Shown here: piece by piece, positions 45,065-63,138 of the stretch
Position numbering within the stretch: position 1 is the stretch's first letter
Layout: the number at the start of each line of letters is the position of its first letter
DNA from: Methylophilaceae bacterium
GTDB taxonomy: Bacteria; Pseudomonadota; Gammaproteobacteria; Burkholderiales; Methylophilaceae
NCBI GenBank assembly: GCA_036561085.1
Contig: DATBPY010000023.1
Span: forward strand, 8,367-72,366
Reading direction: 5' to 3'
DNA: 64,000 nucleotides
The notes under the pieces: generated by a model
The model's input: the letters and a program-made list of their open reading frames with translations, nothing else
The model's database searches: none
What the model was told of the DNA's origin: nothing
Program-made: the position numbers and the translations under genes

Positions 45065-45634
45065 ATGAAAATCACGGGTATCGTTTTGGCAGGGGGGCTA
45101 GGCCGTCGCATGGGTGGCGTGGACAAAGGTCTGATGACATTGCATGGCAGGACAATGGTGCAGCATGTGCTGGAACGTTTGGCTCCACAGGTAGACGAAT
45201 TGTTAGTGAATGCTAACCAGAATCTTGAACAATATGCCGCTTTTGGCTATCGCGTCATTGCAGACAACCTATCTGAATATGCCGGGCCTTTAGCGGGATT
45301 ACAAGCCGGTTTGACTGAGGCACGCAATGACTGGGTGGCAACAGTGCCTTGCGATTCACCGTTTTTACCGCTCGATTTGATTGCGCGATTAAAAGCAGCT
45401 TTGCTGGAACATAAAACTGAGGTTGCGATAGCAACGACCTTAGGCCAACCGCATCCCGTGTTTTGTCTTTGTCAGCGTAGCGTGCTGCCGCATCTGACAT
45501 CCTTTCTGGATAGCGGGGGGCGCAGATTCGAGATGTGGTATGCCGATTTGAAAGTGGTAGAAGTCAATTTCGACGATCAAGCCGATGCCTTCAAAAACAT
45601 CAATACACCGCAGGAATTGGCAGCGGAAAATTGA
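45065..45634 (+). CDS. mobA: molybdenum cofactor guanylyltransferase
   Basis: 'GIVLAGGLGRRMGGVDKGL' N-terminus. Confidence 0.9.
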   Translation: MKITGIVLAGGLGRRMGGVDKGLMTLHGRTMVQHVLERLAPQVDELLVNANQNLEQYAAFGYRVIADNLSEYAGPLAGLQAGLTEARNDWVATVPCDSPFLPLDLIARLKAALLEHKTEVAIATTLGQPHPVFCLCQRSVLPHLTSFLDSGGRRFEMWYADLKVVEVNFDDQADAFKNINTPQELAAEN

Positions 45635-46146
45635 CTACGCCCTTACTCGGATTCTGCGCATACGCTAGCGGCACGGGCAAAACAACTCTGCTCATCAGTC
45701 TCATTCCTTTATTAAATGAGGCTGGCTTGCGCATATCGGTCATCAAACATACTCACCATCCTGTTGATATCGATCAACCGGGCAAGGACAGTTACAGATT
45801 ACGCAAATCCGGCGCAGTACAGATGTTGTTGAGTTCAAATGAGCGATTGGCATTGATGACTGAGCGAACGCGGGCGGAAAAAGATACTGAGCCTGATTTG
45901 CAAGAGCTGTTGCGCCAAATGGACACCAGCCTCGCGGATTTGATCGTAGTAGAAGGATTCAAACATGCACCTATTCCCAAAATAGAGATTTATCGTCCTT
46001 CCCTAGGTACTCCATTGCTGGCGGAACATGATGCGCACATTATCGCTATTGCCGCAGACGGTGAAGTGAAAACCAAACTGCCGGTACTGGATCTGAATAA
46101 TCCGGTTAACATTTGCGCATTCGTACAGACGTGGTTGAAGGGGTAG
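45631..46146 (+). CDS. mobB: molybdopterin-guanine dinucleotide biosynthesis adapter MobB
   Basis: Walker A 'SGTGKTTL' and 'VIKHTHH'. TTG at 45631 overlaps the mobA stop. Confidence 0.8.
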   Translation: MTTPLLGFCAYASGTGKTTLLISLIPLLNEAGLRISVIKHTHHPVDIDQPGKDSYRLRKSGAVQMLLSSNERLALMTERTRAEKDTEPDLQELLRQMDTSLADLIVVEGFKHAPIPKIEIYRPSLGTPLLAEHDAHIIAIAADGEVKTKLPVLDLNNPVNICAFVQTWLKG

Positions 46147-46163
46147 ATGATGAGTACAAGTAA

Positions 46164-47432
46164 ATGAGTAAAGATAAAGTGGATTTCATAGCCGCCAGTT
46201 GCACTGATGATTACGATCCGAATTCGATGCCGGTGGAGCAGGCTAGGCGGCTTATACGGCAATACCTTACTCCTGTGCATGACCAGGAATCGTTACCCAT
46301 TCGTGAAGCTTTGGGACGAGTATTGGCGGCCGATATATTGTCGCCTTGCAATGTACCTAATCATGACAATTCAGCGATGGATGGCTACGCTTTTAATGGC
46401 GATGACATTGCAACTGAAATTGCGCTGAAGTTGATCGGCACGGCTTTCGCCGGAAAACCCTATAGCGGAAAAGTAGGTCGCGGCGAATGCGTGCGCATCA
46501 TGACGGGCGCGGTGATGCCGGATAAAACCGATACCGTGGTTCCGCAAGAGCAGGCGCAAGTCGAAGGCGAAAGCGTAACTTTTATGGCAGGACCCAAGCG
46601 CGGCCAGCATCGCCGTTTTGCGGGTGAAGATTTGAAGTTGGGGCAAGTGGTATTGTCTAGGGGGCATTTGATCCGGCCGGCGGATTTGGGGTTGGTAGCA
46701 TCACTGGGCATGGGAGAAGTGAGCATGTACCGCAGCTTACGAGTAGCTTTCTTTTCCACGGGCGATGAACTTACTGGTGTCGGCCAGGCGTTGGAAACGG
46801 GACAAGTCTACGATAGCAACCGCTACACCATTTACGGCATGTTGATGAGGCTGGGTGTAGAAGTGATCGATATGGGAGTGGTGCGTGACGATCCCGCTTT
46901 GCTGGAACAAGCGCTGATCACCGCCTCAACCTCTGCCGATGTCGTGATGACAAGCGGCGGTGTCTCCGTAGGCGAAGCCGATTTCATGAAGCTGCTATTA
47001 GAAAAGCTGGGCCAGGTAGTGTTTTGGAAAATCGCCATGAAACCGGGACGACCGTTGGCGTACGGTAAAGTCGGCAATGCGCATTATTTTGGATTGCCTG
47101 GCAATCCGGTGTCAGTGATGGTGACTTTCTATCAGTTCGTGCGCGAGGCCTTGCTGCTGTTGATGGGAAACAGCCATCCAACGGCGATACCGTTGTTGTC
47201 CGCCATGTGTGTCGACGAGATCAAAAAAGCGCCCGGGCGCACGGAATTCCAGCGCGGGATATTAAGCCGGGGTGCCGAGGGTGCATGGAAAGTACGCCTT
47301 ACGGGCAACCAAGGCTCGGGTATATTAAGCTCAATGAGCGAAGCCAATTGCTTTGTGGTGTTGGCTGAAGATTGCGCCAATGTGCCTGCAGGAACCGTAG
47401 TGCAAGTACAAATTATGGACGGATTGGTGTAA
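46164..47432 (+). CDS. moeA: molybdopterin molybdotransferase
   Basis: 'NSAMDGYA', 'TSGGVSVGEADF' and 'KPGRPL' motifs. Confidence 0.9.
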   Translation: MSKDKVDFIAASCTDDYDPNSMPVEQARRLIRQYLTPVHDQESLPIREALGRVLAADILSPCNVPNHDNSAMDGYAFNGDDIATEIALKLIGTAFAGKPYSGKVGRGECVRIMTGAVMPDKTDTVVPQEQAQVEGESVTFMAGPKRGQHRRFAGEDLKLGQVVLSRGHLIRPADLGLVASLGMGEVSMYRSLRVAFFSTGDELTGVGQALETGQVYDSNRYTIYGMLMRLGVEVIDMGVVRDDPALLEQALITASTSADVVMTSGGVSVGEADFMKLLLEKLGQVVFWKIAMKPGRPLAYGKVGNAHYFGLPGNPVSVMVTFYQFVREALLLLMGNSHPTAIPLLSAMCVDEIKKAPGRTEFQRGILSRGAEGAWKVRLTGNQGSGILSSMSEANCFVVLAEDCANVPAGTVVQVQIMDGLV

Positions 47433-47437
47433 AGTAT

Positions 47438-47465
47438 TTGTTTTACAGGCACTTACGTCTATAAT
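47438..47465 (+). promoter_or_regulatory. candidate sigma70-like promoter TTGTTT-16 nt-TATAAT immediately upstream of flhB
   Basis: The -10 TATAAT (47460-47465) lies only 10 nt before the flhB ATG. Sequence-only call. Confidence 0.3.
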
Positions 47466-47475
47466 CTGAGACACT

Positions 47476-48633
47476 ATGGCAGAACAAGAAAGCGACCTTG
47501 AAAGAACCGAGCCGGCCTCGCAACGAAGGCTGGACGAGGCTCGCGAGAAAGGCAACATCCCGCGCTCCAGAGAGCTCAACACATTCGCCATCACCATGGC
47601 TGGGGCAGTTTCGCTGCTGATATTGGGTGCTGGGTTCGCAGATGGCTTGCGTGCGCTGATGCAGCACTGGTTCACATTCAATTATCGCATGCTGTCAGAC
47701 CCCATGTTGATGTGGCATGGTTTTATAGATTCAGTCATCGCCGTGCTATTTTTATTTATCCCTTTTATGGTGATTCTGGTGTTGGCAGCTCTCATGGCAC
47801 CGATGTCGATCGGCGGTTGGATGTTCAGTTCGGATGCGCTACAGCCGGATTTCAGCCGCCTTAATCCATTAAAAGGTTTCGCCCGCGTTTTTTCCCTGAA
47901 TGGTTTGGCAGAACTGGTGAAAGCGATATTCAAGGCACTCTTGGTAGGCGGCTTGGGTTTCTGGATCATCTGGGGAAAAAGGGAAGAGATACTGAGTCTT
48001 GCTGCTGAGCCCGTCAGTGGTGGCATTCCGCATGCGTTGCATATCATGGCATGGAGTTTTGTAATGATCACTGCGGCGATGCTGGTGATCGTTCTTATGG
48101 ATGTGCCCTATCAGCTTTGGCAATACCATCACAAACTACGCATGACCAAAGAAGAAATACGCAAAGAAATGCGCGAGAGCGAAGGCGATCCGCATATCAA
48201 AGGGCGTATTAGATCTTTACAACGCGAAGCAGCACGCAAACGCATGATGGCCGAAGTGCCTACGGCAGACGTGATTGTTACCAACCCTACTCACTACGCA
48301 GTCGCTTTGCTTTATAAGCCGGAAAGCATGCGTGCGCCTAAAGTACTGGCCAAGGGTAGCTATCTACTGGCCCAACGCATCCGTGAGTTGGGCGAGGAAA
48401 ACAATGTACCCATCCTGGAAGCCCCTTCTTTGGCACGTGCGCTTTACCGACATGCAGAGATAGAACAAGAGATACCTTCTGCATTGTTTGCGGCGGTGGC
48501 CGAAGTTCTGGCGTATATTTACCAACTTCACAGCTATAATAGCGGCGAAGGTGCGCAACCATTGATGCCTAAAGATCTGCCGGTGCCCAAGGAATTGGAT
48601 TTCGAGCCGCCGGAAGATGCAGTGTTTAACTAA
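47476..48633 (+). CDS. flhB: flagellar type III export apparatus protein FlhB
   Basis: N-terminus 'EQESDLERTEPASQRRLDEAREKGNIPRSRE' and autocleavage site 'NPTH'. Confidence 0.9.
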   Translation: MAEQESDLERTEPASQRRLDEAREKGNIPRSRELNTFAITMAGAVSLLILGAGFADGLRALMQHWFTFNYRMLSDPMLMWHGFIDSVIAVLFLFIPFMVILVLAALMAPMSIGGWMFSSDALQPDFSRLNPLKGFARVFSLNGLAELVKAIFKALLVGGLGFWIIWGKREEILSLAAEPVSGGIPHALHIMAWSFVMITAAMLVIVLMDVPYQLWQYHHKLRMTKEEIRKEMRESEGDPHIKGRIRSLQREAARKRMMAEVPTADVIVTNPTHYAVALLYKPESMRAPKVLAKGSYLLAQRIRELGEENNVPILEAPSLARALYRHAEIEQEIPSALFAAVAEVLAYIYQLHSYNSGEGAQPLMPKDLPVPKELDFEPPEDAVFN

Positions 48634-48684
48634 AGATTAACCAAGCAATTAATTAAGTAAAAAGCAGCACACAGGAGTGCGTGA

Positions 48685-50760
48685 ATGGCGATTGAAGCCC
48701 CAAAAGTAGGGATGCGGGAATTTGCACTACCACTGCTCATCATCATGATTCTGGGCATGATGGTATTGCCCCTGCCTACCATTTTGCTCGATCTGTTATT
48801 CACCTTCAATATCGCTTTGGCCATGATCGTCATCATGGTCAGTATCTACACCCTTAAACCTTTGGATTTCGCAGCATTTCCTACAGTGCTGCTGCTGACG
48901 ACATTGCTGCGTCTGTCGCTGAATGTGGCTTCGGCGCGTGTCGTGCTGCTGCAGGGGCATACCGGGCCGGACGCGGCTGGTAAGGTGATCGAAGCCTTCG
49001 GCCACTTCCTGGTGGGCGGTAATTACGCCGTCGGTATCATCGTGTTCACCATTCTGGTGATCATCAATTTCGTGGTAATTACCAAAGGTGCCGGCCGTAT
49101 CGCTGAAGTGAGCGCACGGTTCACTTTGGACGCGATGCCGGGTAAGCAAATGGCCATCGATGCCGACCTCAATGCCGGCATGATAGGCGAAGACGATGCC
49201 AGAAGGCGTCGTGCAGAAATCGCGCAAGAAGCAGATTTTTACGGCGCCATGGACGGTGCCAGTAAGTTCGTGCGCGGTGACGCCGTAGCCGGTATTTTGA
49301 TCGTATTCATTAACATTATCGGCGGTTTGATCGTCGGTATGGTGCAGCATGGGCTGGATTTCGCCACTGCACTGAACAATTACACGTTGCTCACCATCGG
49401 TGACGGCCTGGTAGCGCAAATCCCCGCGCTGATCATCTCTACTGCCGCAGGTATCGTGGTGACCCGAGTCGGCGGCGATGACGATAAAGACATCGGTACC
49501 CAACTGTTGGGTCAGATGTTTGCAAACTCCAAAGTGCTATACCTCACTGGCGGGCTATTGTGCATCATGGGCTTGATCCCTGGTATGCCACACTTCGCTT
49601 TCCTGTTGTTGGGTAGCGGTGCCGCCTGGATAGGCTATACCATGGACAAGCGTGCCCGTCTGGCGATTGAAGGTACTGATAACGTCAAAGCCGTATTGCC
49701 TCCGCCTACCGACGAGATGCCGGAAGTGGGCTGGGAAGATGTGCAGTCGGTAGACGTGATCGGTCTGGAAGTCGGCTATCGCCTGATTCCGTTAGTGGAT
49801 CGTGGGCAAGATGGCGAATTGCTGCGTCGTATTCGGGGTATCCGTAAGAAGTTTGCATTGGATTCCGGGTTTCTGGTTCCCCCCGTGCATATCCGCGACA
49901 ATCTTGAATTGAAGCCGAATGTTTATCGCGTGGTGCTCAAAGGCGTAGAGATCGGCCAAGGCGAAGGTTTTGTGAACCAATACCTTGCCATTAATCCAGG
50001 TCGCGTGAGCGGTGAGTTGATCGGCGTACAAACCAAAGACCCGACTTTCGGTTTGCCTGCGGTATGGATCGAGAATGAAATGCGCGACCAAGCACAAGCT
50101 TATGGTTATACCGTGGTAGATGCATCTACCGTGATCGCGACCCATCTTTCCAATGTGATCCAAACGCATGCTTCTGAATTGCTGGGACGAGAAGAAACAC
50201 AGCAATTGGTGGATCGTGTGGCTAAAGAATCGCCCAAGCTGGTGGAAGATCTTATTCCCAAGACCTTGCAGCTCAGTACCTTGCAGAAAGTGTTGCAGAA
50301 CCTGTTGGCTGAAGGCGTGCATATCCGTGACATGCGTACCATATTGGAAGTATTGGCGGATCACGCGATGCGTACCCAGGATACGGAAGTGCTGACCGCG
50401 GCTGTGCGTACCGCCTTGGGTCGTGCCATTACCCAGCAGCTATTCGCCGGTAATGAAGAGATACAGGTGATCGCGCTTGAACCTCGTTTGGAAAGTATGT
50501 TGATGCATGCCACGCAGACTCCGGGCATGGATGGCCCAGGGCTGGAACCAGGTCTGGCAGAGCAATTGCTGGAAGGCGTCAGTCAATCTGCTGCCGAGCA
50601 GGAGCAGATGGGTGTGCCTTCGGTGTTGCTGGTGCCCAGCCAGTTGCGTTCCGTATTGTCGCGTTTTCTGCGCCGCTCCGTACCTAATCTCAGCGTGCTG
50701 GCCCATAACGAGATTCCGGATGGCCGCACCATCCGCATCGTGCACACTGTTGGCGGTTAA
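48685..50760 (+). CDS. flhA: flagellar type III export apparatus protein FlhA
   Basis: Collinear with E. coli FlhA as I remember it ('MVLPLP..LLDLLFTFNIAL', 'GAGRIAEVSARFTLDAMPGKQMAIDADL'). 691 aa. Confidence 0.95.
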   Translation: MAIEAPKVGMREFALPLLIIMILGMMVLPLPTILLDLLFTFNIALAMIVIMVSIYTLKPLDFAAFPTVLLLTTLLRLSLNVASARVVLLQGHTGPDAAGKVIEAFGHFLVGGNYAVGIIVFTILVIINFVVITKGAGRIAEVSARFTLDAMPGKQMAIDADLNAGMIGEDDARRRRAEIAQEADFYGAMDGASKFVRGDAVAGILIVFINIIGGLIVGMVQHGLDFATALNNYTLLTIGDGLVAQIPALIISTAAGIVVTRVGGDDDKDIGTQLLGQMFANSKVLYLTGGLLCIMGLIPGMPHFAFLLLGSGAAWIGYTMDKRARLAIEGTDNVKAVLPPPTDEMPEVGWEDVQSVDVIGLEVGYRLIPLVDRGQDGELLRRIRGIRKKFALDSGFLVPPVHIRDNLELKPNVYRVVLKGVEIGQGEGFVNQYLAINPGRVSGELIGVQTKDPTFGLPAVWIENEMRDQAQAYGYTVVDASTVIATHLSNVIQTHASELLGREETQQLVDRVAKESPKLVEDLIPKTLQLSTLQKVLQNLLAEGVHIRDMRTILEVLADHAMRTQDTEVLTAAVRTALGRAITQQLFAGNEEIQVIALEPRLESMLMHATQTPGMDGPGLEPGLAEQLLEGVSQSAAEQEQMGVPSVLLVPSQLRSVLSRFLRRSVPNLSVLAHNEIPDGRTIRIVHTVGG

Positions 50761-50832
50761 AAGAGAGCCTGAACGAGCCCCCATTTCCGTTGTCTACTGC
50801 TATATCCACAGTGTTACTTTGAAGGATTTCTG

Positions 50833-51612
50833 ATGAAACGGTTTTTTGTCCTGCTCTGCTTATTAACCTGCAGTTTTTTAAGCCTGAATGCATTTGCGGA
50901 AGCGGACTCCAATCTATGGCCGGTGCTGAAAAAAAGCTTCTTCGGCGACAAACAGATCGATGCTGCTGGTTCCATGAAGCTGGAAGGACCGAGACGCGCT
51001 GAAAGCGGTGCGCAAGTGCCCATCACTTTGACCATAGATAAGCCGGATGCCTTCAAGAATGTATATCTGTTCGTGGATGCCAATCCCATTCCTTTGGCTG
51101 CGGTATACCACTTCACGGCACTTAACGGCAAAGCACAGTTATCTACTCGCATTCGCATGCAGACCGATTCCTTCATTCATGCCGTGGGCGAGACTGCCGA
51201 CGGTAAATTGTCTATGGCTGATATGGTGATACGTGCAGCGGGTGGCTGCGGCGGGGCGGTGGATGGCGACGATACGGAAATTCGCGCGGCCGCCGGCAAA
51301 ATCAAGCTAAGCGTGGAAACACCGGTCAAGTTCGGTGAAGCTAACCCGGTCACGTTTTTAATCAAGCACCCCATGTTCACAGGTCTGCAGCGTGATTTAG
51401 TCTCCGGAGGCTATAAACCGGCATTCTTCATCAGCAAGGTAAGTTTCAGCTATAACAGCAAACCGGTAATGGACGCTGACTTCGGTGTGGCAATTTCAGA
51501 AGATCCTTACATGCGCTTCTTTTACTTGCCTGATGCACCGGGAAAGCTTGATGTGACTGCCTTGGATAACGAAGGCAAAGCATTCACTCATGAGGTGAAT
51601 GTCAGTAATTAA
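50833..51612 (+). CDS. periplasmic SoxY-SoxZ fusion, quinoprotein-dehydrogenase-associated SoxYZ-like carrier
   Basis: Signal peptide, then a SoxY-like half ending in the carrier motif 'AAGGCGG'. The SoxZ-like half carries 'IKHPMFTGLQRD'. Confidence 0.75.
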   Translation: MKRFFVLLCLLTCSFLSLNAFAEADSNLWPVLKKSFFGDKQIDAAGSMKLEGPRRAESGAQVPITLTIDKPDAFKNVYLFVDANPIPLAAVYHFTALNGKAQLSTRIRMQTDSFIHAVGETADGKLSMADMVIRAAGGCGGAVDGDDTEIRAAAGKIKLSVETPVKFGEANPVTFLIKHPMFTGLQRDLVSGGYKPAFFISKVSFSYNSKPVMDADFGVAISEDPYMRFFYLPDAPGKLDVTALDNEGKAFTHEVNVSN

Positions 51613-51652
51613 TCGTAATTGAACGAGCCGGATTAACTTAATGCGGCGCAAC

Positions 51653-51686
51653 AAATAGAAATGGGCGCTATGCGCCCATTTCTATT
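51653..51686. terminator. bidirectional hairpin between the convergent SoxYZ-like and cytochrome b561 genes
   Basis: AAATAGAAATGGGCGC-TAT-GCGCCCATTTCTATTT, a 16-nt perfect inverted repeat with A/T-rich flanks on both sides. Confidence 0.7.
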
Positions 51687-51710
51687 TGAAAATTGCCGGT
51701 AATTCCGAAG

Positions 51711-52304
51711 CTATTTACCGAGTGACATGCGCCTCATGACCTCATCCTTGTCTACGATCATGTGTTTTAAGGCGGCCAGCATATGGATTACAACCAGAGT
51801 CACTAGCAGCCATGCGATCGTCTCGTGTATCTCCTTGAAGACGAGGCGCAGGGGTTCATTGTCAAGACCGGTGATGACAGGGATGCCGAACCATTTCACA
51901 CCGTATTTGCTATAGGCACCCATGATCAGGCCGCTTAGCGGCATCAGGAACATCAACAAATAGAGCAAGTGATGGGATGCATGAGCGGCTTTTTGTTGCC
52001 AAGCGACCATAGAGGCTGGCAAAGGCGGTGCAGCATGGGTGAGACGCCAGAGGATACGCAGTAATATCAAGGCGGCGACAGTAATACCGAATGATTTATG
52101 CAAATTGAAATAATAGGATCTGAGAGAGATAGCTTCAGTGAACTGTACGGTATGCAGGTGCCAATTGAATAGATCAACAGACATGACCTTGGCAGCATCT
52201 TTGGGCAAGGTAGACATATACCAACCTAAAGCCAGCATGCCGATTATCATTACCGCAATCAGCCAGTGCAGGATAATGGCAACTTTGGTGTAGCGTGTGT
52301 TCAT
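51711..52304 (-). CDS. cytochrome b561 family (CybB-like) membrane protein
   Basis: 'KVAIILHWLIAV', four TM helices with conserved His ('HKSFG', 'HHLLY', 'IHMLAALKH'). A GGAGA sequence precedes the ATG at 52304. Confidence 0.8.
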   Translation of the reverse strand: MNTRYTKVAIILHWLIAVMIIGMLALGWYMSTLPKDAAKVMSVDLFNWHLHTVQFTEAISLRSYYFNLHKSFGITVAALILLRILWRLTHAAPPLPASMVAWQQKAAHASHHLLYLLMFLMPLSGLIMGAYSKYGVKWFGIPVITGLDNEPLRLVFKEIHETIAWLLVTLVVIHMLAALKHMIVDKDEVMRRMSLGK

Positions 52305-52453
52305 GTAATATCTCCATATCAAACATTGAAAAATTACTGCGCTTAATTAGTCCGAGGCGCATGCTTTAAGTTCATGGCAACCAGATGACATGCGCGCGGT
52401 CAAAAGTATGACCGTCATCATAACCTGAACTCCTAATACAGAGGTTTAACATA

Positions 52454-53386
52454 TTGTATCGTTCGCTTGCACTGATGCTGTTTCACGCCTCGCTCTATAG
52501 CACGTTTTTTTTCTCGCTCATCGCGGCGGCCGAGCCGTTGCCGGTTACGGAAGTTGCCCCCGGTGTTTTTGTACATCAAGGCGTGCATGAAGAGTTGACC
52601 GAAGGTTATCACGGCGACATCGCCAACATCGGTTTTGTGGTGGGTAAAACTGCCGTGGCGGTAATTGATACCGGCGGCACACTGGAAGTCGGTAAGCGCT
52701 TGCGCGAAGCGGTACGTCAAGTCACCGATCTACCTATTGCCTATGTCATCAACACGCATGTTCACCCGGACCATATTTACGGTGACGCAGCATTTTTGCA
52801 AGATCATCCGCAGTTCGTAGGACATTTCAAACTGGCCGATGCGTTGGAGTTGCGTCGGGATATGTACCAGAGAAATAACCTAGAAGTATTGGGAGCTGCT
52901 TTTGCCGGTAGTGAGATAGTAAAGCCCACATTGTTAGTTAAGGATACACGGGAGCTTGATCTGGGTAACCGTGTTCTGCAACTCAAGGCATGGTCGCCCG
53001 CGCATACCAATACGGATCTGACGGTGTTTGATACCGCCAGCCAGACTTTATGGACAGGCGATCTGTTGTTCATTGAGCGAACTCCTGCCATGGATGGAGA
53101 TACCCGCAATTGGCTCAAACTCATCCCATTACTCAAAGCGATCCCCGCGAAAATGGTTATTCCTGGACATGGCAGACCCACTGCGCAAGGACAACAGGCT
53201 TTCGATCGCGAGCAACATTATTTTGAGGTGATACTGGCCGACATTCGTGCCAGCATCAAAAAAGGTGAGACCATGGAAAGCACCATGGATCATGCGGCCG
53301 CCAGTGAAAAAGATTCCTGGGTACTATTTTCTACCGTCAATCGTCGTAATATCAACTTACTGTATCCGCAGCTGGAATGGGAGTGA
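52454..53386 (+). CDS. periplasmic metallo-beta-lactamase-fold hydrolase (quinoprotein-relay-type / SoxH-like)
   Basis: Signal peptide and zinc motif 'NTHVHPDHIYGD', with later 'PAHTNTD' and 'PGHG'. TTG start with AGAGG upstream. Confidence 0.8.
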   Translation: MYRSLALMLFHASLYSTFFFSLIAAAEPLPVTEVAPGVFVHQGVHEELTEGYHGDIANIGFVVGKTAVAVIDTGGTLEVGKRLREAVRQVTDLPIAYVINTHVHPDHIYGDAAFLQDHPQFVGHFKLADALELRRDMYQRNNLEVLGAAFAGSEIVKPTLLVKDTRELDLGNRVLQLKAWSPAHTNTDLTVFDTASQTLWTGDLLFIERTPAMDGDTRNWLKLIPLLKAIPAKMVIPGHGRPTAQGQQAFDREQHYFEVILADIRASIKKGETMESTMDHAAASEKDSWVLFSTVNRRNINLLYPQLEWE

Positions 53387-53443
53387 CAAGGTTGATCTAA
53401 GCACGTGATTGTTACTGCTATAATCCCAGCCTTTCAATGTTTT

Positions 53444-54220
53444 ATGTCGCGCAACATGGCGCATCCTACCCATTCCATTCACCCAAATAATGACCTGCTG
53501 CTGTGGGCATTGGTATTGTCTATCGGCCTGCATAGCGCAGCACTGGGATTGTTGCCTGGGTTCAGTTTTAGCCATCCTATAAACAGGATAGAACCGTTGA
53601 CGGTGGAGTTGCAACAACTGCCGCCCCCTCCAGCAGTAGAGCCGGAAAAACCGAAACCACCTGAGCCGCCAAAACCGCAACCCAAACCCAGGCAGGAGAA
53701 ATTACCGCCTAAAGTGGTGCCGCAACCGGTGACGCCTCCCTCCGCTCCTGCCGTGGTGCCGCAGCATAATGAACCTCCTCCACCTGTTGTCACGTCAGAG
53801 CCTCCTAAGGCTGCGCCATCGCCCGCTGTAATTGTGGAGCAGAAACCTGTTGAATCGCACCCGGCAATTACTGTGCCTGTGGCGACACCGAGCGCTCCCG
53901 CACCCGATGAAGACACTTTGGGTGAAGTAAGAGCTGCTTATGGCCGGTTGTTAAATAGCGAATTCTCCAAACACACCAGATACCCTCCTGTAGCAGCACT
54001 GAAAGGCTGGGAAGGGAAAGTACACATCAAGCTACAGATCGATAAAGATGGAAATGTGATTGGAACGCCTGAAGTCACTGAAGGTAGCGGTTACAAAATG
54101 CTCGATGACGACGCAGTCAAGACCATACTGAAATGTTCCCCACTGCCTTTGCCTCCTGCAGCATTGTTTACCAAGCCGGTATTTATCAATACCATTATTG
54201 ACTATCATAAACAGCGATGA
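53444..54220 (+). CDS. tonB: energy transducer TonB
   Basis: TM anchor with 'LHSAAL', a long Pro-rich spacer (EPEKPKPPEPPKPQPKP...) and a C-terminal 'GSGYKMLDDDAVKTI' domain. Confidence 0.75.
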   Translation: MSRNMAHPTHSIHPNNDLLLWALVLSIGLHSAALGLLPGFSFSHPINRIEPLTVELQQLPPPPAVEPEKPKPPEPPKPQPKPRQEKLPPKVVPQPVTPPSAPAVVPQHNEPPPPVVTSEPPKAAPSPAVIVEQKPVESHPAITVPVATPSAPAPDEDTLGEVRAAYGRLLNSEFSKHTRYPPVAALKGWEGKVHIKLQIDKDGNVIGTPEVTEGSGYKMLDDDAVKTILKCSPLPLPPAALFTKPVFINTIIDYHKQR

Positions 54221-54307
54221 ATGGTCTATAACCACTATTCAGTGCTTGCCTTGTTTGCCGTTTTTCACAACAATGAGGGTATTCTTTGATACCGATGTGT
54301 TCATTAC

Positions 54308-54763
54308 ATGCTTAATCAAGTTGTGCCTGATTTCAGTCTGCCCATGACGGGTGGAAATGACTTTCAACTGCATGAGTTTAAAAATAAAAAGCTGGTGATT
54401 TATTTTTATCCTAAAGATGCTACCCCAGGATGTACGACAGAAGGTCAGCAATTTCGCGATCTATATGCACAATTCCAGGCCGCAGATGCAGAGGTATTTG
54501 GCGTCTCGCGCGATTCCATCAAATCTCATGAAGCTTTCAAAGCCAAGCTCGGTTTACCTTTCCAACTGCTGAGCGACGACGAAGAACTGGCATGCCGGCT
54601 GTTCGATGTCATCAGGATGAAGAATATGTATGGTAAACAGGTTAGAGGCATCGAACGCAGCACGTTTTTGATAGACGCGTCCGGTGTGCTCAAACAAGAA
54701 TGGCGCAAAGTAAAGGTAGACGGTCACGCGCTTGCAGTGCTTGAAGCAGTCAAAACTATTTAA
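54308..54763 (+). CDS. bcp: thioredoxin-dependent peroxiredoxin Bcp
   Basis: 'FYPKDATPGCTTE' peroxidatic Cys motif. Confidence 0.9.
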   Translation: MLNQVVPDFSLPMTGGNDFQLHEFKNKKLVIYFYPKDATPGCTTEGQQFRDLYAQFQAADAEVFGVSRDSIKSHEAFKAKLGLPFQLLSDDEELACRLFDVIRMKNMYGKQVRGIERSTFLIDASGVLKQEWRKVKVDGHALAVLEAVKTI

Positions 54764-57394: not shown

Positions 57395-58750
57395 TTAATG
57401 CAGTTTGACGTGGGGGGAGGCGCGGCGCGTGATGATCTGCGCGATGGTGTCTAAAACCACCTTGGTCAATCCATGCAATGCGAACAAGTGCATTTTGTAT
57501 AGCATGCGATACATAAGCCCGGCAAAACTGCCTTGAATGAACAGTGCTCCACCTGTCAGTCCACCCATTAGATTCCCCACCGTACTATATTTGCCTAGGC
57601 TCACCAAAGAGCCGAAATCGCGATAACTGTACTCTGGTAAGGATTTACCTTTGAGTCTGCGTTTAACGGATTTAAGCAGCATGGAAGCCTGCTGGTGGGC
57701 AGCTTGCGCGCGAGCCGGTACCAGAATGTCTCTGCCTTGAGCGTCTTTTCCCTGAGCAACCCACGGGCATGCAGCGCAATCGCCGAGAGCGAAAATATTA
57801 TCGTCATTAGTGGTCTGTAAGGTGGTTTTGACGACCAACTGATTCGACCAATTGGTCTCCAGACCATCCATGTTTTTCAGGAAATCCGGGGCTTTGATCC
57901 CGGCAGCCCATACGACGAGGCTGGCGGCCACCAAGAGTCCATCTTTGGTATGCACCCCTTCTGCATCTACTTTCGTAACGCGTTGACCCAGCTTTAGCTC
58001 AACATTCAGCTTTTCCAATTGGCGCTGCACTTCCAGCGAGATATCTTCCGGGAGTGCCGGCAGAATCCTCGGTGCAGCCTCGATAATGCTTAATTTCACA
58101 TCCCGGTCAGGATTGATGTTATCCAGCCCGTGCGCAGCCAACTGGCGTGTCGTATTGTGTAATTCAGCCGACAATTCCACTCCGGTTGCGCCGCCGCCAA
58201 TGATGGCCACGTTCAAATGTCCTTGGTGGCTGTCGGTGGGAGCTACTTGAGTACGAATACAAGCGTTGATCAGGCGGCGATGGAAGGTAGCAGCTTCGGC
58301 TTGGGTTTCCAGTGCTACAGCGTATTCCTGAACTCCGGGAATGCCAAAATCGTTGGAAACACTGCCTACTGCAATGATCAGCGTGTCATAGTGAATTTCC
58401 CGTACCGGAATCAACACCTTGCCATCTTCATCATGAGTAGGTGAGAGGGTGATGATCTGTTTGCTCCTATCCAGCTTTTCCAGCGCGCCCAGACGGAAAT
58501 TGAAATGATGCCAGTAACCCTGGGCAATGTATTCAATTTCGTGTTCATCCATATCCATGCTACCCGCCGCTACTTCATGCAGCAGCGGTTTCCACATATG
58601 CGTGGAATATTTATCTACCAGAGTCACCATGGCTTTTCCCCGCTTGCCGAGCTGATCTCCCAAGCGAGTGGCTAATTCCAAACCTCCAGCCCCACCACCT
58701 ACAACTACAACGTGGTGTAATTCTTTTCCAACCTGGTTTACTACAGACAT
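57395..58750 (-). CDS. ndh: type II NADH:quinone oxidoreductase (NDH-2)
   Basis: Two dinucleotide folds, 'VVVGGGAGGLE' and 'IIGGGATGVE'. Confidence 0.9.
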   Translation of the reverse strand: MSVVNQVGKELHHVVVVGGGAGGLELATRLGDQLGKRGKAMVTLVDKYSTHMWKPLLHEVAAGSMDMDEHEIEYIAQGYWHHFNFRLGALEKLDRSKQIITLSPTHDEDGKVLIPVREIHYDTLIIAVGSVSNDFGIPGVQEYAVALETQAEAATFHRRLINACIRTQVAPTDSHQGHLNVAIIGGGATGVELSAELHNTTRQLAAHGLDNINPDRDVKLSIIEAAPRILPALPEDISLEVQRQLEKLNVELKLGQRVTKVDAEGVHTKDGLLVAASLVVWAAGIKAPDFLKNMDGLETNWSNQLVVKTTLQTTNDDNIFALGDCAACPWVAQGKDAQGRDILVPARAQAAHQQASMLLKSVKRRLKGKSLPEYSYRDFGSLVSLGKYSTVGNLMGGLTGGALFIQGSFAGLMYRMLYKMHLFALHGLTKVVLDTIAQIITRRASPHVKLH

Positions 58751-58767
58751 GATGACTCCAAAACTAT

Positions 58768-59295
58768 TTATTCGTTACCCGTGGTTTTGCCGTGGGATCT
58801 AATCCATGCGATTACTTGCAGCACTTCGTCCGGCGTCAGACCATTAGTTGGATCCGTTGGATCCATCAGGCCTTTGCCCTTTGCGCCCATACCGTTATTG
58901 GTGCCATGCCATATGGTTTCGAACATACCCTTGTTAGTGGCGTTCTTCGGGTAGTGGAAATCGGGACCATGCAGGCTGGGGCCCGTTTGCCCTTGTGCAT
59001 CTCCGCCATGACATTGCGTGCAGGAGTATGCCTGGAATAATTTTTTCCCCTTGGCCTCTGCATCTGCATTGCCAACGTAGGGGTCTTTGCCGGTAGAAGC
59101 AAATTCTTTTGCCTGGGGAGTGTCAAACAATTCAGGCTTGATGGCTAAAGCCGAACCATCCTGAGTCGAGACAAAATCCAACATCTTTCCATCACCGCCA
59201 CCCGCAGCAGCTGCTTTATCGCCCCCTTTGTTACCGCAAGCAGTTAGAGCCAAGGCCAGCATGCCAGAAATGACGACCAAATTAATTTTGTTCAT
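58768..59295 (-). CDS. lipoprotein c-type cytochrome (XoxG-like paralogue 2)
   Basis: Lipobox 'LTAC', heme motif 'CTQCHG' and 'GMGAKG' Met-ligand region. GGAGG lies upstream of the ATG at 59295. Confidence 0.75.
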   Translation of the reverse strand: MNKINLVVISGMLALALTACGNKGGDKAAAAGGGDGKMLDFVSTQDGSALAIKPELFDTPQAKEFASTGKDPYVGNADAEAKGKKLFQAYSCTQCHGGDAQGQTGPSLHGPDFHYPKNATNKGMFETIWHGTNNGMGAKGKGLMDPTDPTNGLTPDEVLQVIAWIRSHGKTTGNE

Positions 59296-59345
59296 ACCTA
59301 ACACCTCCCTAAAAAAAGAAGTAATTCTACCTGAAACTGGTGCCA

Positions 59346-59385
59346 TAAAAAAACAAACGGCCATTGCATCATGCAATGGCCGTTT
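59346..59385 (-). terminator. Rho-independent terminator between the two cytochrome c genes
   Basis: 14-bp perfect stem AAACGGCCATTGCA/TGCAATGGCCGTTT with a 3-nt loop. On the minus strand it is followed by GTTTTTTTAT. Confidence 0.85.
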
Positions 59386-59407: not shown

Positions 59408-59911
59408 TTATTCGTTGCCGGACGGATGGTTTCCGCCTTCGTTACGAATCCAGGAGATGATCTTCAATACTTCGTCAGGCTTCAAACCATCGGTAGGATC
59501 GGTAGGGTTCATCAGACCTAAGCCTTTAGCACCCATGCCCCCATTGGTGCCGTTCCAGATGGTTTCAAACATACCTTTATTGGTAGCATCTTTTGGATAT
59601 CTGAAGGTAGGGCCTAACAAGCCAGGGCCTACTTGACCTTTAGCTTCAGGTCCGTGGCACTGAGTACAGGAGTAATAGCCGAATCTTTTTTTACCGGCTT
59701 TGATAGCCTCTTCGTTACCGATATAAGGATTCTTGCCGGTTGCCAAGAATTCCTTAGCGGCCGGAGTATCGAATAATTCCGGCGCAATCTTGATTGGCGA
59801 GCCATCGGTTGTGGTTACCAGATCGATCGCCGCAGCCTTCAGGGGCAGTGCTAGTGCAGCGAGTGCGAGCATAGAAACCAAGAAAGTGGTTTTTACTTTA
59901 TTGCCTAACAT
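59408..59911 (-). CDS. xoxG: periplasmic c-type cytochrome (XoxG-like paralogue 1)
   Basis: Signal peptide, 'CTQCHG' and 'GMGAKG'. It follows xoxJ. Confidence 0.8.
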   Translation of the reverse strand: MLGNKVKTTFLVSMLALAALALPLKAAAIDLVTTTDGSPIKIAPELFDTPAAKEFLATGKNPYIGNEEAIKAGKKRFGYYSCTQCHGPEAKGQVGPGLLGPTFRYPKDATNKGMFETIWNGTNGGMGAKGLGLMNPTDPTDGLKPDEVLKIISWIRNEGGNHPSGNE

Positions 59912-60030: not shown

Positions 60031-60939
60031 TTATTCTGACTTCGGTATGACATCTCCCTTTGGTTCATCTTTTCTCTTGAATTCCAGCTTGTCGCCTTCA
60101 ACAACAGGTACGTGAGGAACGCCATAGTCATCCAGTATCTTGTTGATTTTATCCACATTGCGATCAAGAGCGCCTTGTATCATCGCCATACGTTCCTTGT
60201 CTTTATGGCGCACACCTATAGAGATATTCCAGTACTCTTTGCCTTTAGGGTTGACTCCCTCATATTCAGGAATAGGTACTACCACCAAAGGTATTTTGGC
60301 ATGTTTAGCGAAATAGCCGCCTATCGGACCCCAATCAATGACAATGTCTGCTTTTCCGGCGACCAAGTCGTCAACCAGATAGCTGGACGGCAAGTTCAAA
60401 TCGCGTTGCATACGATATGGGTGTGCATTTTCCATCAGATCGTGGTCTCTGAGCGGAATGGTCGCAGGGCTTTGCCCGTCGATGGCGATGACGCCTTTGC
60501 GTAGATCAGGAGAATCCCAATCTTTAATGTTGTAACCACTATCCTTGCGATAAATAAATACATGGCCGGAGCGGTAATAAGGTTTCGACGTTCTCATCAT
60601 GTCGTTATCGCTGGTAGTGCTCATGACTACATCGCAACGGTTGGCGTTAAGAGTATTACGGATAAAACCCATGCGGTCAGGCCAGAACTGAAAGGACAGT
60701 TTTTTGCCTAAATCGGCAGCCAATACGGCTGCTATCTTGTTCTCGAAACCTTCTTGTTTGGAGTTGGAGTAAGGCAGAAAGTCTGGATCTGCACATACTT
60801 TGAATTCGGTACCATCATCTACACGCATTGCTTCGCCTGGCCTACCTGAATTCAAGTCAACAGGTATATCGTCGGCGGCATATGCAATGCCTGCCATCGT
60901 TAAGGCAAGAATTAAAAATGTAAGTTTTTTTAGCATCAT
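60031..60939 (-). CDS. xoxJ: MxaJ/XoxJ-type periplasmic binding protein (quinoprotein dehydrogenase-associated)
   Basis: 302 aa with a signal peptide and a type-2 periplasmic-binding fold ('KVCADPDFLPYS'). It lies immediately downstream of xoxF. Confidence 0.8.
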   Translation of the reverse strand: MMLKKLTFLILALTMAGIAYAADDIPVDLNSGRPGEAMRVDDGTEFKVCADPDFLPYSNSKQEGFENKIAAVLAADLGKKLSFQFWPDRMGFIRNTLNANRCDVVMSTTSDNDMMRTSKPYYRSGHVFIYRKDSGYNIKDWDSPDLRKGVIAIDGQSPATIPLRDHDLMENAHPYRMQRDLNLPSSYLVDDLVAGKADIVIDWGPIGGYFAKHAKIPLVVVPIPEYEGVNPKGKEYWNISIGVRHKDKERMAMIQGALDRNVDKINKILDDYGVPHVPVVEGDKLEFKRKDEPKGDVIPKSE

Positions 60940-61077: not shown

Positions 61078-62973
61078 TTACAGGCTGAACACGTTCAGTA
61101 CACCGCCGCCAGGAGCAGCATTGTACTTCGTCAGTTCAGCATAACCACCAGCAGCACCAAGAGCGTCTGTTGGAGTGGTCAGACCCAGGTTCATCGCCAC
61201 GCCAGCCCAACCGCCGATACCGGACAGTACGCCAACGTATTGCTTACCTGCATGGCCGTAGGTGAAGGCATTGCCGATCACGCCGGAACCAACTTGGAAC
61301 TTCCACAGTTCCTTACCGGTGTTAGCGTCAAGAGCCTTGAACCAACGATCCAGGGTGCCGTAGAACACCAGATCAGAAGCGGTGGTCAGAGCACCACCCC
61401 AAGCGGAGAATTTCTCCTTGTTGTACCACTTGGCTTTGTTGGTCATAGGATCGTAAGCGCCGAAGCCGCCCATCACGCCATCAGGACCAGGGAACATGGT
61501 CAGGGTAGCGCCAACCCAAGGTTGACCTGCAACATACTTGGACTCAACTGGCTCGTAGGTCATGCAAACGTGGTTGAGTGGGGTATATACCAGGCCGGTA
61601 CGTGGGGAGTAAGCAGCTGGCTGCTGGTCCTTGGTACCCAATGCTGCTGGGCAAACACCCTTGGCATTGTAGTCTTGGTGGGTAGAAGCGGATGCCAACT
61701 TGTTAGGCACACCGGTCTTCATATCAACATCTGTTGCCCAGTTCACGAATGGGTGAACTTTTTGAGCTGCAATCAGAGTGCCGGTATGAGCATTCCAGGT
61801 GTAAGCGAAACCGTTACGGTCATGGTGCCAAGCGTAGGTCTTGCCGCCCTTGTCGAACAGGATTTCTTCGTTGATGCCATCATAATCCCACTCATCGTGT
61901 GGGGTCATTTGCATCGCCCATTTAGCCATACCGGTGTCCAGGTCGCGAGCCCAGGTGGTCATGGACCACTTGTTGTCGCCAGGACGTACGTCTGGATTCC
62001 AAACGGATGGGTTACCGGAACCGTAGTAAACCAGATTGGTACGTGGGTCATATGGCCACCAGCCCCATACGGAACCGCCACCATGTTGCCAACCGTCTTT
62101 AACTGCTTGTGGCTTGAGCCAGGTCTTTACGCCCAGGTCGGTTTCACCGATCTTCAGTTGGTCGTTAGGGATCTTCTTGAAGGAACCGCCTTGCTTGTTA
62201 CCGCCATTGACATCTTCGTATACAGACAGAGCGTTGTATTGAGGATTGTCTTTGTTGGTGTCAGCATTGATCAGCACTTCGCTGTCTGGGCCCATGCTGT
62301 ATGCGCGCCATGCCAAAGAACCGTCCTTGATGTTGTAAGCGCTGATGTGGCAACGAACACCGAATTCAGCACCGGAGCAACCGGTCAGGATCAAGTCTTT
62401 TCTGATTTGTGGAGCATTGGTGTTGGTAGCGCCAACCTTAGGATCGTTAACTTTAACGTCCCAAACTTTAGCACCGGTCTTTGCATCCAGAGCAATCAAC
62501 ACACCGTCGTTTTGTTGCAACAGTACCTTGCCGTCACCGAAGCCCAGACCACGGTTCACGTTGTCGCAGCACAGAACTGCTTGAACGGATGGATCTTGTT
62601 TAGGGAAATAAGCCCAAACGATCTTTTGATTGTCGTTCAGATCAAGTGCGTACACGTTGTTTGGGAATGCGGTATGAACATACATCATGTTACCGATAAC
62701 CAAAGGAGCACCTTCATGGCCGCGGTTTACACCGGTAGCGAAAGTCCAAGCTGCTTTAACGTTCTTGACGTTGCCTTTGTTGATTTGGGACAGTTTTGAA
62801 TAACCTTGGTTATCATATTGACCGCGTGGGTCTGCCCAGTTGTTTGCATCTTTCATTGCGGCTTCGTGGTCTGCAGCTGCAACAGCTACATTAGCAGCCG
62901 TCGCGGCCATAGGCATAGCTATGGACATACCAGCTGCCAGCCCGAGGGCCAACTTGATTTTATTAATCTCCAT
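61078..62973 (-). CDS. xoxF: PQQ-dependent methanol dehydrogenase, lanthanide-type XoxF
   Basis: Signal peptide, vicinal 'CC' disulfide pair ('AVLCCDNV') and 'WDYDG'. The extra Asp is diagnostic of Ln-dependent XoxF, where MxaF has DYAG. ATG at 62973 with GGAG upstream. Confidence 0.9.
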   Translation of the reverse strand: MEINKIKLALGLAAGMSIAMPMAATAANVAVAAADHEAAMKDANNWADPRGQYDNQGYSKLSQINKGNVKNVKAAWTFATGVNRGHEGAPLVIGNMMYVHTAFPNNVYALDLNDNQKIVWAYFPKQDPSVQAVLCCDNVNRGLGFGDGKVLLQQNDGVLIALDAKTGAKVWDVKVNDPKVGATNTNAPQIRKDLILTGCSGAEFGVRCHISAYNIKDGSLAWRAYSMGPDSEVLINADTNKDNPQYNALSVYEDVNGGNKQGGSFKKIPNDQLKIGETDLGVKTWLKPQAVKDGWQHGGGSVWGWWPYDPRTNLVYYGSGNPSVWNPDVRPGDNKWSMTTWARDLDTGMAKWAMQMTPHDEWDYDGINEEILFDKGGKTYAWHHDRNGFAYTWNAHTGTLIAAQKVHPFVNWATDVDMKTGVPNKLASASTHQDYNAKGVCPAALGTKDQQPAAYSPRTGLVYTPLNHVCMTYEPVESKYVAGQPWVGATLTMFPGPDGVMGGFGAYDPMTNKAKWYNKEKFSAWGGALTTASDLVFYGTLDRWFKALDANTGKELWKFQVGSGVIGNAFTYGHAGKQYVGVLSGIGGWAGVAMNLGLTTPTDALGAAGGYAELTKYNAAPGGGVLNVFSL

Positions 62974-63109
62974 GTTGAATCTCCGTAGTGATTTACTTAC
63001 TAAGGGTTTTAGAGAAGCCTCCCTTTTCGTCCGAGCCACTGTATAAAACATTAACTCACATCGATAGAAAAGATAGACTCCGCTGCATTTTGTATATGCA
63101 GCTAATGCG

Positions 63110-63138
63110 ATACTAGAGCAGTCATAATCGAATTGCAA
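63110..63138 (-). promoter_or_regulatory. candidate sigma70-like promoter for xoxF (TTGCAA-17 nt-TAGTAT)
   Basis: Sequence-only call. It would give a leader of about 130 nt containing a 7-bp hairpin GCTGCAT-N7-ATGCAGC (63082-63102). Confidence 0.25.

Follow-up and report, generated by a model that had tools for sequence, protein, structure and literature searches.

A quinoprotein relay-type carrier and hydrolase with neighbouring cytochrome b561 and TonB genes in a Methylophilaceae bacterium

Genes at the locus

Four adjacent genes were analysed in a 64,000-nt stretch of DNA, called the window below, from a Methylophilaceae bacterium (assembly GCA_036561085.1, contig DATBPY010000023.1, positions 8,367-72,366 of the forward strand). 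They encode a SoxYZ-like cysteine carrier, a cytochrome b561, a hydrolase of the metallo-beta-lactamase (MBL) fold and a TonB protein, and are followed, further downstream and on the minus strand, by a xoxF operon for a methanol dehydrogenase dependent on pyrroloquinoline quinone (PQQ). An initial annotation had read the four as one periplasmic relay serving this quinoprotein. The presence and position of all four genes were borne out by family models and open reading frames (ORFs). The features are listed below in positions of the window; bit scores are followed by the cutoff of the model where one applies.

50833-51612, plus strand: SoxY-SoxZ fusion carrier, 259 aa (TIGR04557, PF13501, PF08770)
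51241-51255, plus strand: GGCGG motif of the carrier, residues 137-141, with the presumed carrier cysteine Cys139 (from alignments)
51652-51688, no strand: perfect 17-bp hairpin between the carrier and b561 genes (read by hand, then folded)
51711-52322, minus strand: four-helix, di-haem cytochrome b561 (PF01292, 111.7 bits against 30.1)
52454-53386, plus strand: MBL-fold hydrolase, "quinoprotein relay system zinc metallohydrolase 2", 310 aa (TIGR04559)
52757-52774, plus strand: HxHxDH metal motif of the hydrolase, H102-V-H104-P-D106-H107 (from alignment)
53405-54220, plus strand: TonB (TIGR01352, 50.5 bits against 27.1; PF03544, 45.5 bits)

The carrier matched TIGR04557 over the full length of the model (1-226 of 226), with 235.1 bits against a cutoff of 140. 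Behind a signal-like N-terminus, the Pfam domains SoxY (PF13501, residues 34-139) and SoxZ (PF08770, residues 165-255) follow each other in one polypeptide. The protein is 100% identical to a GenBank entry from a Methylophilaceae metagenome-assembled genome, already named after TIGR04557. Scores on the equivalog models of the Sox system remained below cutoff (SoxY TIGR04488, 84.1 against 125; SoxZ TIGR04490, 70.5 against 76). The GGCGG motif is internal, at the SoxY/SoxZ junction, and aligns with the C-terminal GGCG(G) of solved SoxY chains. Its cysteine was invariant in 18 Methylophilaceae homologues, and the GGC was invariant across 9 homologues from three classes, the alpha- and betaproteobacterial ones reading GGCSAP and those of Methylophilaceae GGCGG. 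The carrier has one conserved cysteine and no CXXC pair. An AlphaFold2 model of the carrier, built on the 18-sequence alignment, had a mean predicted local distance difference test score of 65.5, falling below 50 in the GGCGG region, and was not used.

The hydrolase gene begins 0.8 kb downstream of the carrier gene, which is itself followed at 7-11 kb by the xoxF operon. Its product scored 398.7 bits on TIGR04559 (cutoff 280) and 193.5 bits on the paralogous TIGR04558, below the cutoff of 300. With its signal-like N-terminus, it is predicted to be a secreted, periplasmic binuclear MBL-fold hydrolase. The HxHxDH motif, described as intact in the initial annotation, is indeed conserved together with H184, D203 and H239, so that all the metal ligands (H102, H104, D106, H107, H184, D203, H239) are retained among 10 sequences of this type (MBL2) from three proteobacterial classes. 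The nearest solved relatives are distant (8d2z, an uncharacterised MBL protein, and 6uxu, a chlorothalonil dehalogenase; E ~1e-16 to 1e-14). Glyoxalase II was considered as an identity and rejected, the match to TIGR03413 reaching 32.4 bits against a cutoff of 200.8 over a short N-terminal stretch alone.

The four genes fall into three or more transcription units. The carrier (plus) and b561 (minus) genes converge, whereas b561 and MBL diverge from a 131-bp spacer. The hairpin at 51652-51688 folded with -33.9 kcal/mol (z -6.4), a stability reached in 0 of 200 shuffles, and is likely to be a bidirectional terminator. TonB is probably co-transcribed with MBL, since its start lies 18 bp past the MBL stop. 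A promoter and terminator scan of 50600-54500 gave counts not above those of shuffles. The idea of the four genes as a single unit was therefore given up, with b561 on the opposite strand, the hairpin separating it from the carrier and three or more transcription units in the group.

Conservation of the carrier and hydrolase

One genome per species was scanned, yielding 80 Methylophilaceae loci onto which the window proteins were mapped; 70 of these were informative. The order carrier (plus), b561 (minus), MBL (plus) was found in 48 of the 70. Outside the family, plasmid and chromid records from seven genera were used, comprising five Alphaproteobacteria (Phyllobacterium, Azospirillum, Alloyangia, Sinorhizobium and Roseomonas) and two Betaproteobacteria (Azoarcus and Caballeronia). 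In addition, a metagenome scan seeded with the Azoarcus MBL2 returned 80 diverse loci (L094-L173). Adjacency of the carrier was counted in the 32 metagenome loci having at least 1.5 kb on both sides of MBL2, and companion genes were counted in the 41 loci of at least 6 kb.

MBL2 and carrier genes stood side by side in all seven genera. Their neighbours included xoxF, cytochrome c, XoxJ-like and CXXCW rhodanese-like genes, pqq genes, and formaldehyde genes of the tetrahydromethanopterin (H4MPT) or glutathione type. In Azoarcus and Caballeronia a co-directional run consisted of xoxF, xoxJ, a gene for a 223-aa protein, MBL2, the carrier and a second MBL, to which the Azoarcus run adds an annotated cytochrome c and a protein with four cysteines (4-Cys protein). 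The pair was located beside adhI, fghA and gfa in Alloyangia and Sinorhizobium, beside fae and H4MPT genes in Azospirillum and Azoarcus, after pqqE in Roseomonas and within ~5 kb of pqqA-E in Phyllobacterium. Among the metagenome loci, the carrier was adjacent to MBL2 and co-directional with it in 23 of 32; a secreted 4-Cys protein was encoded in 17 of 41, XoxJ in 13 and XoxF in 10.

Because b561 and TonB were almost never found with the pair outside the family (in one of the 41 loci each), the conserved core consists of two proteins, carrier and MBL2, and not of four. The proposal that a thiol carrier and an MBL protein serve a quinoprotein held up well: both proteins pass the curated models TIGR04557 and TIGR04559, and the pair occurs beside xoxF, xoxG or xoxJ in the seven genera and in most of the 80 metagenome loci. 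A predicted functional pair tied to PQQ dehydrogenases of the methanol/ethanol family is thus supported by sequence and gene context. The co-occurrence of carrier, MBL and b561 expected in the initial annotation stood in part: carrier and MBL occur together across taxa, whereas b561 is a consistent partner only in Methylophilaceae.

Several small companions of the pair recur in the other lineages. The 4-Cys protein is a secreted protein of ~105-117 aa with the motifs GCM..NG and KC.CSID and a C-terminal CF, found beside carrier and MBL2 genes in Alpha- and Betaproteobacteria (L081:9901-10251, L082:9742-10056, L083:10707-11060 and L084:9803-10156, all on the minus strand, and L085:9570-9920 on the plus strand). 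It is annotated as hypothetical and has no Pfam or NCBIfam match; it gives the appearance of a third, so far unnamed relay component. Two further families of secreted proteins annotated as hypothetical, of ~223 aa (L084:10153-10824 and L083:11057-11728, minus strand; L085:8839-9567, plus strand) and ~210 aa (L084:6916-7557, L083:7086-7718 and L087:14061-14711, plus strand), recur by carrier/MBL2 or xoxJ in several genera; they have no Pfam match and neither occurs in the window. The rhodanese-like CXXCW, 4-Cys, ~223-aa, ~210-aa and thioredoxin-family companions were not found in the window or in the family loci.

In the Azoarcus run, the second MBL gene, which follows the carrier and is of the metallohydrolase-1 type (L085:11689-12642, plus strand), carries SHGLPEF in place of HxHxDH. 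Judged by this replacement, metal-dependent hydrolysis by the product is improbable, and a role as a binding or scaffold subunit is possible.

Cytochrome b561

The b561 gene probably starts at 52304, since the corresponding GenBank protein has 197 aa. The product has four hydrophobic segments, a conserved loop of ~35 residues between helices 1 and 2, and histidines 13, 69, 111, 160, 174 and 181 that are conserved at 95% or more in 40 homologues. On the equivalog model of Escherichia coli CybB (NF008566) it scored 50.5 bits, below the cutoff of 170.

The divergent b561-MBL arrangement was kept in all 48 of 48 window-like Methylophilaceae loci. Five b561 homologues on long contigs were also looked up, and in these Methylotenera-type loci (L088, L089/L090, L091 and L093) the b561-MBL pair had been relocated and was still divergent. 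The order there was fae, an acetyltransferase gene, doxX, MBL and, in the opposite direction, b561, followed by hemE/gltBD or a ZnuD-like receptor gene. The relocated MBL is the orthologue of the window protein (48-57% identity over the full length), and neither carrier nor TonB was found within 6-8 kb of it. The fae gene lies ~1 kb from the MBL-b561 pair. The stretch with the DoxX-family membrane protein, the acetyltransferase and the Fae gene beside MBL-b561 corresponds to L088:5358-7877, with the same order in L089-L091 and L093. Relatives of DoxX act in thiosulfate:quinone and thiol-stress systems, and for this reason the DoxX neighbour may be relevant.

A homology search with b561 listed 120 proteins, all at least 55% identical; all those with a named source were from Methylophilaceae, which makes the list uninformative on other families. 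For the presence of b561 outside the family, the plasmid and metagenome loci were used instead: the seven plasmid/chromid loci yielded no b561 homologue, and the one metagenome locus of the 41 that has b561 (L166) has it ~6 kb from MBL.

These observations suggest that b561 is a lineage-specific partner of MBL in Methylophilaceae, more than a passive neighbour. The link is suggestive rather than strong because the relocated loci can be counted as about one independent rearrangement. Between b561 and MBL, some 9-mers recurred in as many as 13 of 49 loci, with no more than 4 in shuffles, a count that is confounded by common descent and coding margins.

TonB and a PQQ-import-like gene set

TonB was confirmed to be full, with an N-terminal anchor (LVLSIGLHSAALGLL) carrying S-x3-H, an EP/KP-rich proline spacer and a C-terminal TonB_C domain. 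It follows MBL in 40 of the 44 family loci with enough sequence, at a mean identity of only ~34%. No TonB homologue was found in the seven plasmid/chromid loci; the metagenome locus that has one is Methylophilaceae-like. The scanned ORFs of the window include no ExbB/ExbD and no TonB-dependent receptor.

Relatives of the window carry further genes at this site. In 28 of the 80 family loci a TonB-dependent receptor gene immediately precedes the carrier or stands between moeA and flhB (e.g. L092:7567-9672, minus strand; L013:7745-9820 and L002:4338-6434, plus strand; plus ~25 other family loci). The receptor best matches PqqU, with 564 bits over the full length, below the equivalog cutoff of 1200, the next family reaching 172 bits. 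Among solved structures its only matches below 1e-20 were E. coli PqqU/YncD (9c4o and 6v81; best E 8.5e-142). At 45535-50833 of the window the receptor is absent and flhB directly follows moeA; loss of the receptor from this site is common to the window and its nearest relatives.

A 488-aa sensor histidine kinase is encoded after TonB in about three quarters of the window-like loci (e.g. L002:13358-14824 and L018:13492-14958, plus strand, and ~35 other family loci), with no response regulator gene seen adjacent to it. It is absent from L001, from Methylopumilus-type loci and from the window, where the gap between TonB and bcp is 88 bp (54220-54308). In five genomes a YncE-like propeller protein (YVTN type, PQQ-associated) is encoded between b561 and MBL on the b561 strand; the window has none. 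The unrelated locus L166 (66% GC) shows XoxJ, the 4-Cys protein, MBL2 and the carrier, then a receptor, a propeller, a PqqU-like receptor (625 bits) and, directly after it, b561, the carrier-MBL pair being within 7 kb of the PqqU-like receptor.

Judged by these homologies, receptor, propeller, TonB and kinase look like a PQQ-import-like and sensing set around carrier, b561 and MBL in the relatives. TonB is best explained as a predicted part of this uptake set, outside the relay, because it is not beside the pair elsewhere and because it stands with the kinase and the PqqU-like receptor in relatives. Its inclusion in the relay by the initial annotation was thus not sustained, TonB being missing beside the pair both outside the family and in the relocated Methylotenera-type loci.

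The xox cluster and the remainder of the window

The carrier is preceded by flhB and flhA, and TonB is followed on the plus strand by bcp/prxQ, PIN-PhoH2 and lplT. The dehydrogenase cluster lies on the minus strand, 4.5-8.9 kb downstream of the four genes, in agreement with the 4.5-9 kb to xoxF-xoxJ-xoxG given initially. The genes between TonB and the xox operon encode Bcp, PhoH2, LplT and a protein like type 2 NADH dehydrogenase (NDH-2). The cluster is made up as follows.

61078-63138, minus strand: XoxF-type lanthanide/PQQ methanol dehydrogenase, the presumed client (TIGR03075, 615 bits against 480)
60031-60939, minus strand: XoxJ-like periplasmic binding-protein homologue (TIGR03871, 264.9 bits against 212)
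59408-59911 and 58768-59376, minus strand: two tandem cytochrome cL-like (XoxG-like) genes (TIGR03872, ~95 bits each, below 147.8)

The start of XoxF is probably downstream of 63138. Its best solved match was XoxF1 (6oc5, E 1e-206); the lanthanide Asp is present in HDEWDYDGINE, aligned to HDEWDFDGINE of XoxF1, and so is a vicinal Cys-Cys. At about residues 294-333, some 40 residues take the place of ~11 in XoxF1, amounting to an insertion of ~30 residues between two aligned blocks.

A gap of 17 bp separates the second cytochrome cL-like gene from the NDH-2-like flavoprotein gene behind it (57395-58750, minus strand), which shares its strand with xoxF-xoxJ-xoxG-xoxG. The position of the flavoprotein gene is constant throughout the family, and its co-transcription with the xox operon is possible. 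The flavoprotein was also considered as a sulfide:quinone reductase tied to the carrier, a candidate rejected on its solved-structure matches (9pxk and 5na1), which are NDH-2-like. Similarly, Bcp/PrxQ (54308-54763) was rejected as a counterpart of the thioredoxin-like partner in M. extorquens; it has no signal-like N-terminus and is in ordinary synteny with PhoH2.

In the scanned ORFs of the window, no soxAX, soxB or soxCD and no rhodanese-like protein were found, and the remainder is housekeeping. Periplasmic thiol-reducing functions are encoded by a gene for the protein-disulfide reductase DsbD followed by a TlpA/ResA-like thioredoxin-fold gene at 34422-36766 (plus strand), and by a second TlpA/ResA-like gene at 8098-8565 (plus strand). 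At 29267-31668 (plus strand), a 384-aa ORF without family match, possibly an EfeO-like partner, precedes a gene for an EfeB-like Dyp-type peroxidase/deferrochelatase, whose TIGR01412 score is slightly under the cutoff.

Proposed mechanism and alternatives

Neither the carrier-MBL pair nor its link to quinoproteins is new, both being on record in annotation and in the literature. A 2026 review of the Pseudomonas ped cluster lists PP_2677 as a SoxYZ-like carrier, PP_2678 as a SoxH-like hydrolase and PP_2666 as a rhodanese. According to the review, these genes regularly accompany PQQ alcohol dehydrogenases and are conserved among methylotrophs, with META1p1703-1705 near xoxFGJ in M. extorquens, whose operon also holds a thioredoxin-like gene; as hypotheses it names a part in maturation or redox control and the shielding of PQQ from sulfur nucleophiles. 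In Pseudomonas the same pair serves ethanol dehydrogenases of the PedH/PedE type. A 2024 mSystems study of SoxY diversity placed fusion clades beside genes for PQQ-dependent alcohol dehydrogenase/soxH and beside xoxF, and suggested a role in carbon metabolism or in protecting the dehydrogenase. The same genomic-context observation was made in a Hyphomicrobium paper.

By family membership, the window locus carries the Methylophilaceae version of this quinoprotein relay pair. The best overall explanation, to which we give about an even chance, has the pair work like SoxYZ with SoxB or SoxH, with sulfur as the favoured cargo, b561 as a lineage-specific addition and TonB as a separate function. 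By analogy with SoxYZ and its partners SoxB or SoxH, the periplasmic carrier cysteine would take up a small group in covalent linkage. The oxidant or source of this group would be the quinoprotein together with cytochrome c, and MBL would hydrolyse the group off the carrier, regenerating the thiol. For this group our tentative choice, at a probability clearly short of even, is a sulfur species (for example thiosulfonate, sulfonate or persulfide). Such a species could be formed where thiosulfate, sulfite or sulfide reaches XoxF-type enzymes as a substrate or an inhibitor, in which case the module would serve to protect or maintain the dehydrogenase and not as the route of the main carbon flux. 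Sulfur is favoured because the homologous parts all come from sulfur chemistry and the usual companions are rhodanese-like and 4-Cys proteins. It is favoured also because Hyphomicrobium is inhibited by thiosulfate when it grows on methanol but not when it grows on formate, according to papers citing Li et al. 2023 (BBA), because a XoxF-type enzyme has been reported to oxidise thiosulfate, and because SoxH has been proposed to release sulfate from SoxY (mSystems 2024). The fixed divergent pairing of the MBL gene with b561 suggests for b561 a lineage-specific role in Methylophilaceae, as an electron link from the periplasmic chemistry to the quinone pool.

Several points weigh against this explanation. 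In 22 of the 70 informative family loci the carrier stands alone among housekeeping genes; these loci are mostly of the Methylotenera type, with the carrier between aspS/apt and yjbQ/trhP. The sulfur argument is borrowed from other lineages, since the Methylophilaceae locus is without the rhodanese-like and 4-Cys companions. The internal cysteine, lacking a free C-terminal arm, may make partner recognition of the Sox type inapplicable. The b561-MBL link comes down to essentially one rearrangement in one family, plus the distant L166. In the literature search, no paper was found with a functional experiment on the pair, a carrier adduct or the MBL activity. The phenotypes of P. putida mutants in randomly barcoded transposon sequencing were minimal, though under lanthanide-free conditions (ped review), and the fusion clades are placed by the mSystems 2024 authors in bacteria that do not oxidise thiosulfate, a carbon-metabolism role being favoured.

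Such a carbon role could take the form put forward in the initial annotation, in which formaldehyde is captured as a thiohemiacetal on the carrier cysteine, oxidised on the carrier (plausibly by XoxF and XoxG, with b561 passing electrons to quinone) and released when MBL hydrolyses the thioester. We regard this aldehyde relay as unlikely, although more than one line of evidence fits it. Thiolesterases such as glyoxalase II use the same ligand set (HxHxDH + H + D + H), the curated name "relay system" implies a carried intermediate, and the pair lies beside adhI/fghA/gfa or fae/H4MPT genes in several taxa, with fae also ~1 kb from the relocated MBL-b561. Methylotrophy genes cluster in islands anyway, however, so that proximity to fae or gfa counts for little, and the usual companions of the pair are sulfur or thiol proteins and not aldehyde enzymes. 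The hydrolase itself scores far below the glyoxalase II model, its nearest solved relatives being the uncharacterised MBL protein and the dehalogenase. Moreover, Methylophilaceae assimilate formaldehyde in the cytoplasm via the ribulose monophosphate cycle, and its oxidation in the periplasm would waste carbon. The service of the pair to PedH/PedE-type ethanol dehydrogenases argues that the chemistry is not specific to formaldehyde, and the minimal alcohol-growth phenotypes of the P. putida mutants also speak against an aldehyde relay. Maturation or redox maintenance of the dehydrogenase, in which carrier thiol and MBL would form, reduce or repair the vicinal Cys-Cys disulfide, or insert or stabilise the cofactor, is rather unlikely. 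It was proposed in the ped review from the association with PQQ alcohol dehydrogenases that have adjacent cysteines and from the thioredoxin-like gene of M. extorquens; the XoxF of the window has the vicinal cysteines, and the 4-Cys and CXXCW proteins of other taxa would suit thiol-disulfide exchange. Yet a hydrolase has no obvious role in such an exchange, and the carrier offers a single conserved cysteine, not a CXXC. The calcium-dependent MxaFI assembles in E. coli with nine genes that include no such pair, and Pseudomonas aeruginosa, whose ExaA has the same disulfide, is without the pair (ped review).

The genes of the import-like set raise the question of PQQ itself. Alongside PqqU-like import, the module could free or redox-reset scavenged or nucleophile-adducted PQQ on the carrier thiol, with b561 passing electrons to or from the quinone pool. 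Its target would be the cofactor and not the product of alcohol oxidation, and it would represent an undescribed kind of periplasmic system for cofactor salvage or repair. The PqqU-like receptor beside the carrier in relatives, the propeller in five genomes, TonB after MBL, the arrangement in L166 and the positions near pqq genes in Roseomonas and Phyllobacterium all agree with this, as does the protection of PQQ from nucleophiles named in the ped review. We nevertheless find it improbable, given that PQQ genes, receptors and dehydrogenases cluster for many reasons, that most loci of the pair have no receptor or b561 nearby and that the window itself lacks both receptor and propeller. Finally, carrier and MBL could be a pair to which b561 and TonB are unrelated housekeeping neighbours, held in place by inherited synteny. 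The 12-kb gene order from carrier to xoxF is syntenic across the family and includes the plainly unrelated Bcp, PhoH2, LplT and NDH-2-like genes; the poor conservation of TonB and the near absence of b561 and TonB beside the pair outside the family point the same way. Against this, the divergent b561-MBL pair survives relocation with TonB and carrier left behind, and PQQ-related genes insert right beside b561: xoxF in L015, where it lies between carrier and b561 and directly adjoins the carrier, and the propeller in five loci. Synteny as the whole explanation is for these reasons highly improbable, and the relay pair with a favoured sulfur cargo and a lineage-specific b561 is retained.

Of the accessory modules of lanthanide/PQQ alcohol dehydrogenases that are still uncharacterised, the carrier-hydrolase pair is among the most widespread, its hosts including methylotrophs, rhizobia, Pseudomonas and marine symbionts. 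The window adds no new kind of system but sharpens the targets: a two-protein core, b561 with the hydrolase, and TonB with PqqU-like uptake. Which cargo is carried on the one cysteine (sulfur, aldehyde or PQQ) bears on the way in which methanol oxidation tolerates environmental reduced sulfur.

Comparison with known systems

The logic of an aldehyde relay (thiol capture, oxidation, thioester hydrolysis) would be the same as in the glutathione formaldehyde pathway of Gfa, GS-formaldehyde dehydrogenase and S-formylglutathione hydrolase. The last of these enzymes is an esterase of a fold other than MBL, and several hosts carry the true glutathione pathway right beside the pair. With glyoxalase II the window MBL shares the binuclear ligand pattern but falls far below the family cutoff.

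Like E. coli CybB, of the superoxide:quinone oxidoreductase family, the window b561 is a four-helix di-haem protein matching PF01292 over its full length; unlike CybB, it is below the equivalog cutoff, has the ~35-residue loop between helices 1 and 2 and is paired with a relay MBL gene. As in the E. coli PqqU (YncD)/YncE import set, which is energised by TonB, relatives have a PqqU homologue, a YncE-like propeller and TonB, here around their carrier-b561-MBL genes. The window keeps only TonB, and the receptor of the relatives, being under the equivalog cutoff, has a putative substrate.

With the canonical Sox system (SoxYZ, SoxB, SoxH) the window shares the SoxY and SoxZ folds, the GGCGG cysteine and a periplasmic MBL-fold hydrolase of the SoxH kind. 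It differs in its fused subunits, which place the cysteine inside the chain and not on a free C-terminal swinging arm, and in its genomic partner, a PQQ dehydrogenase, with the sox genes soxAX, soxB and soxCD missing from the scanned ORFs.

The closest counterpart is the catalogued quinoprotein relay pair (P. putida PP_2677/PP_2678; M. extorquens META1p1703-1705), from which the window is set apart by features of its lineage. Carrier and MBL are split by b561, which is locked to MBL on the opposite strand; the motif is GGCGG, as in true SoxY, and not the GGCSAP of the alpha/beta pair; a nearby metallohydrolase-1 paralogue (second MBL), the rhodanese-like CXXCW protein and the 4-Cys protein are absent; and the xox operon is 4.5-9 kb off, past four unrelated genes, rather than part of the same operon. 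In common with it, the window pair passes both curated cutoffs and has the SoxY-SoxZ fusion, the GGC cysteine, the full set of MBL ligands and the association with a PQQ dehydrogenase, a XoxJ-like protein and cytochrome c.

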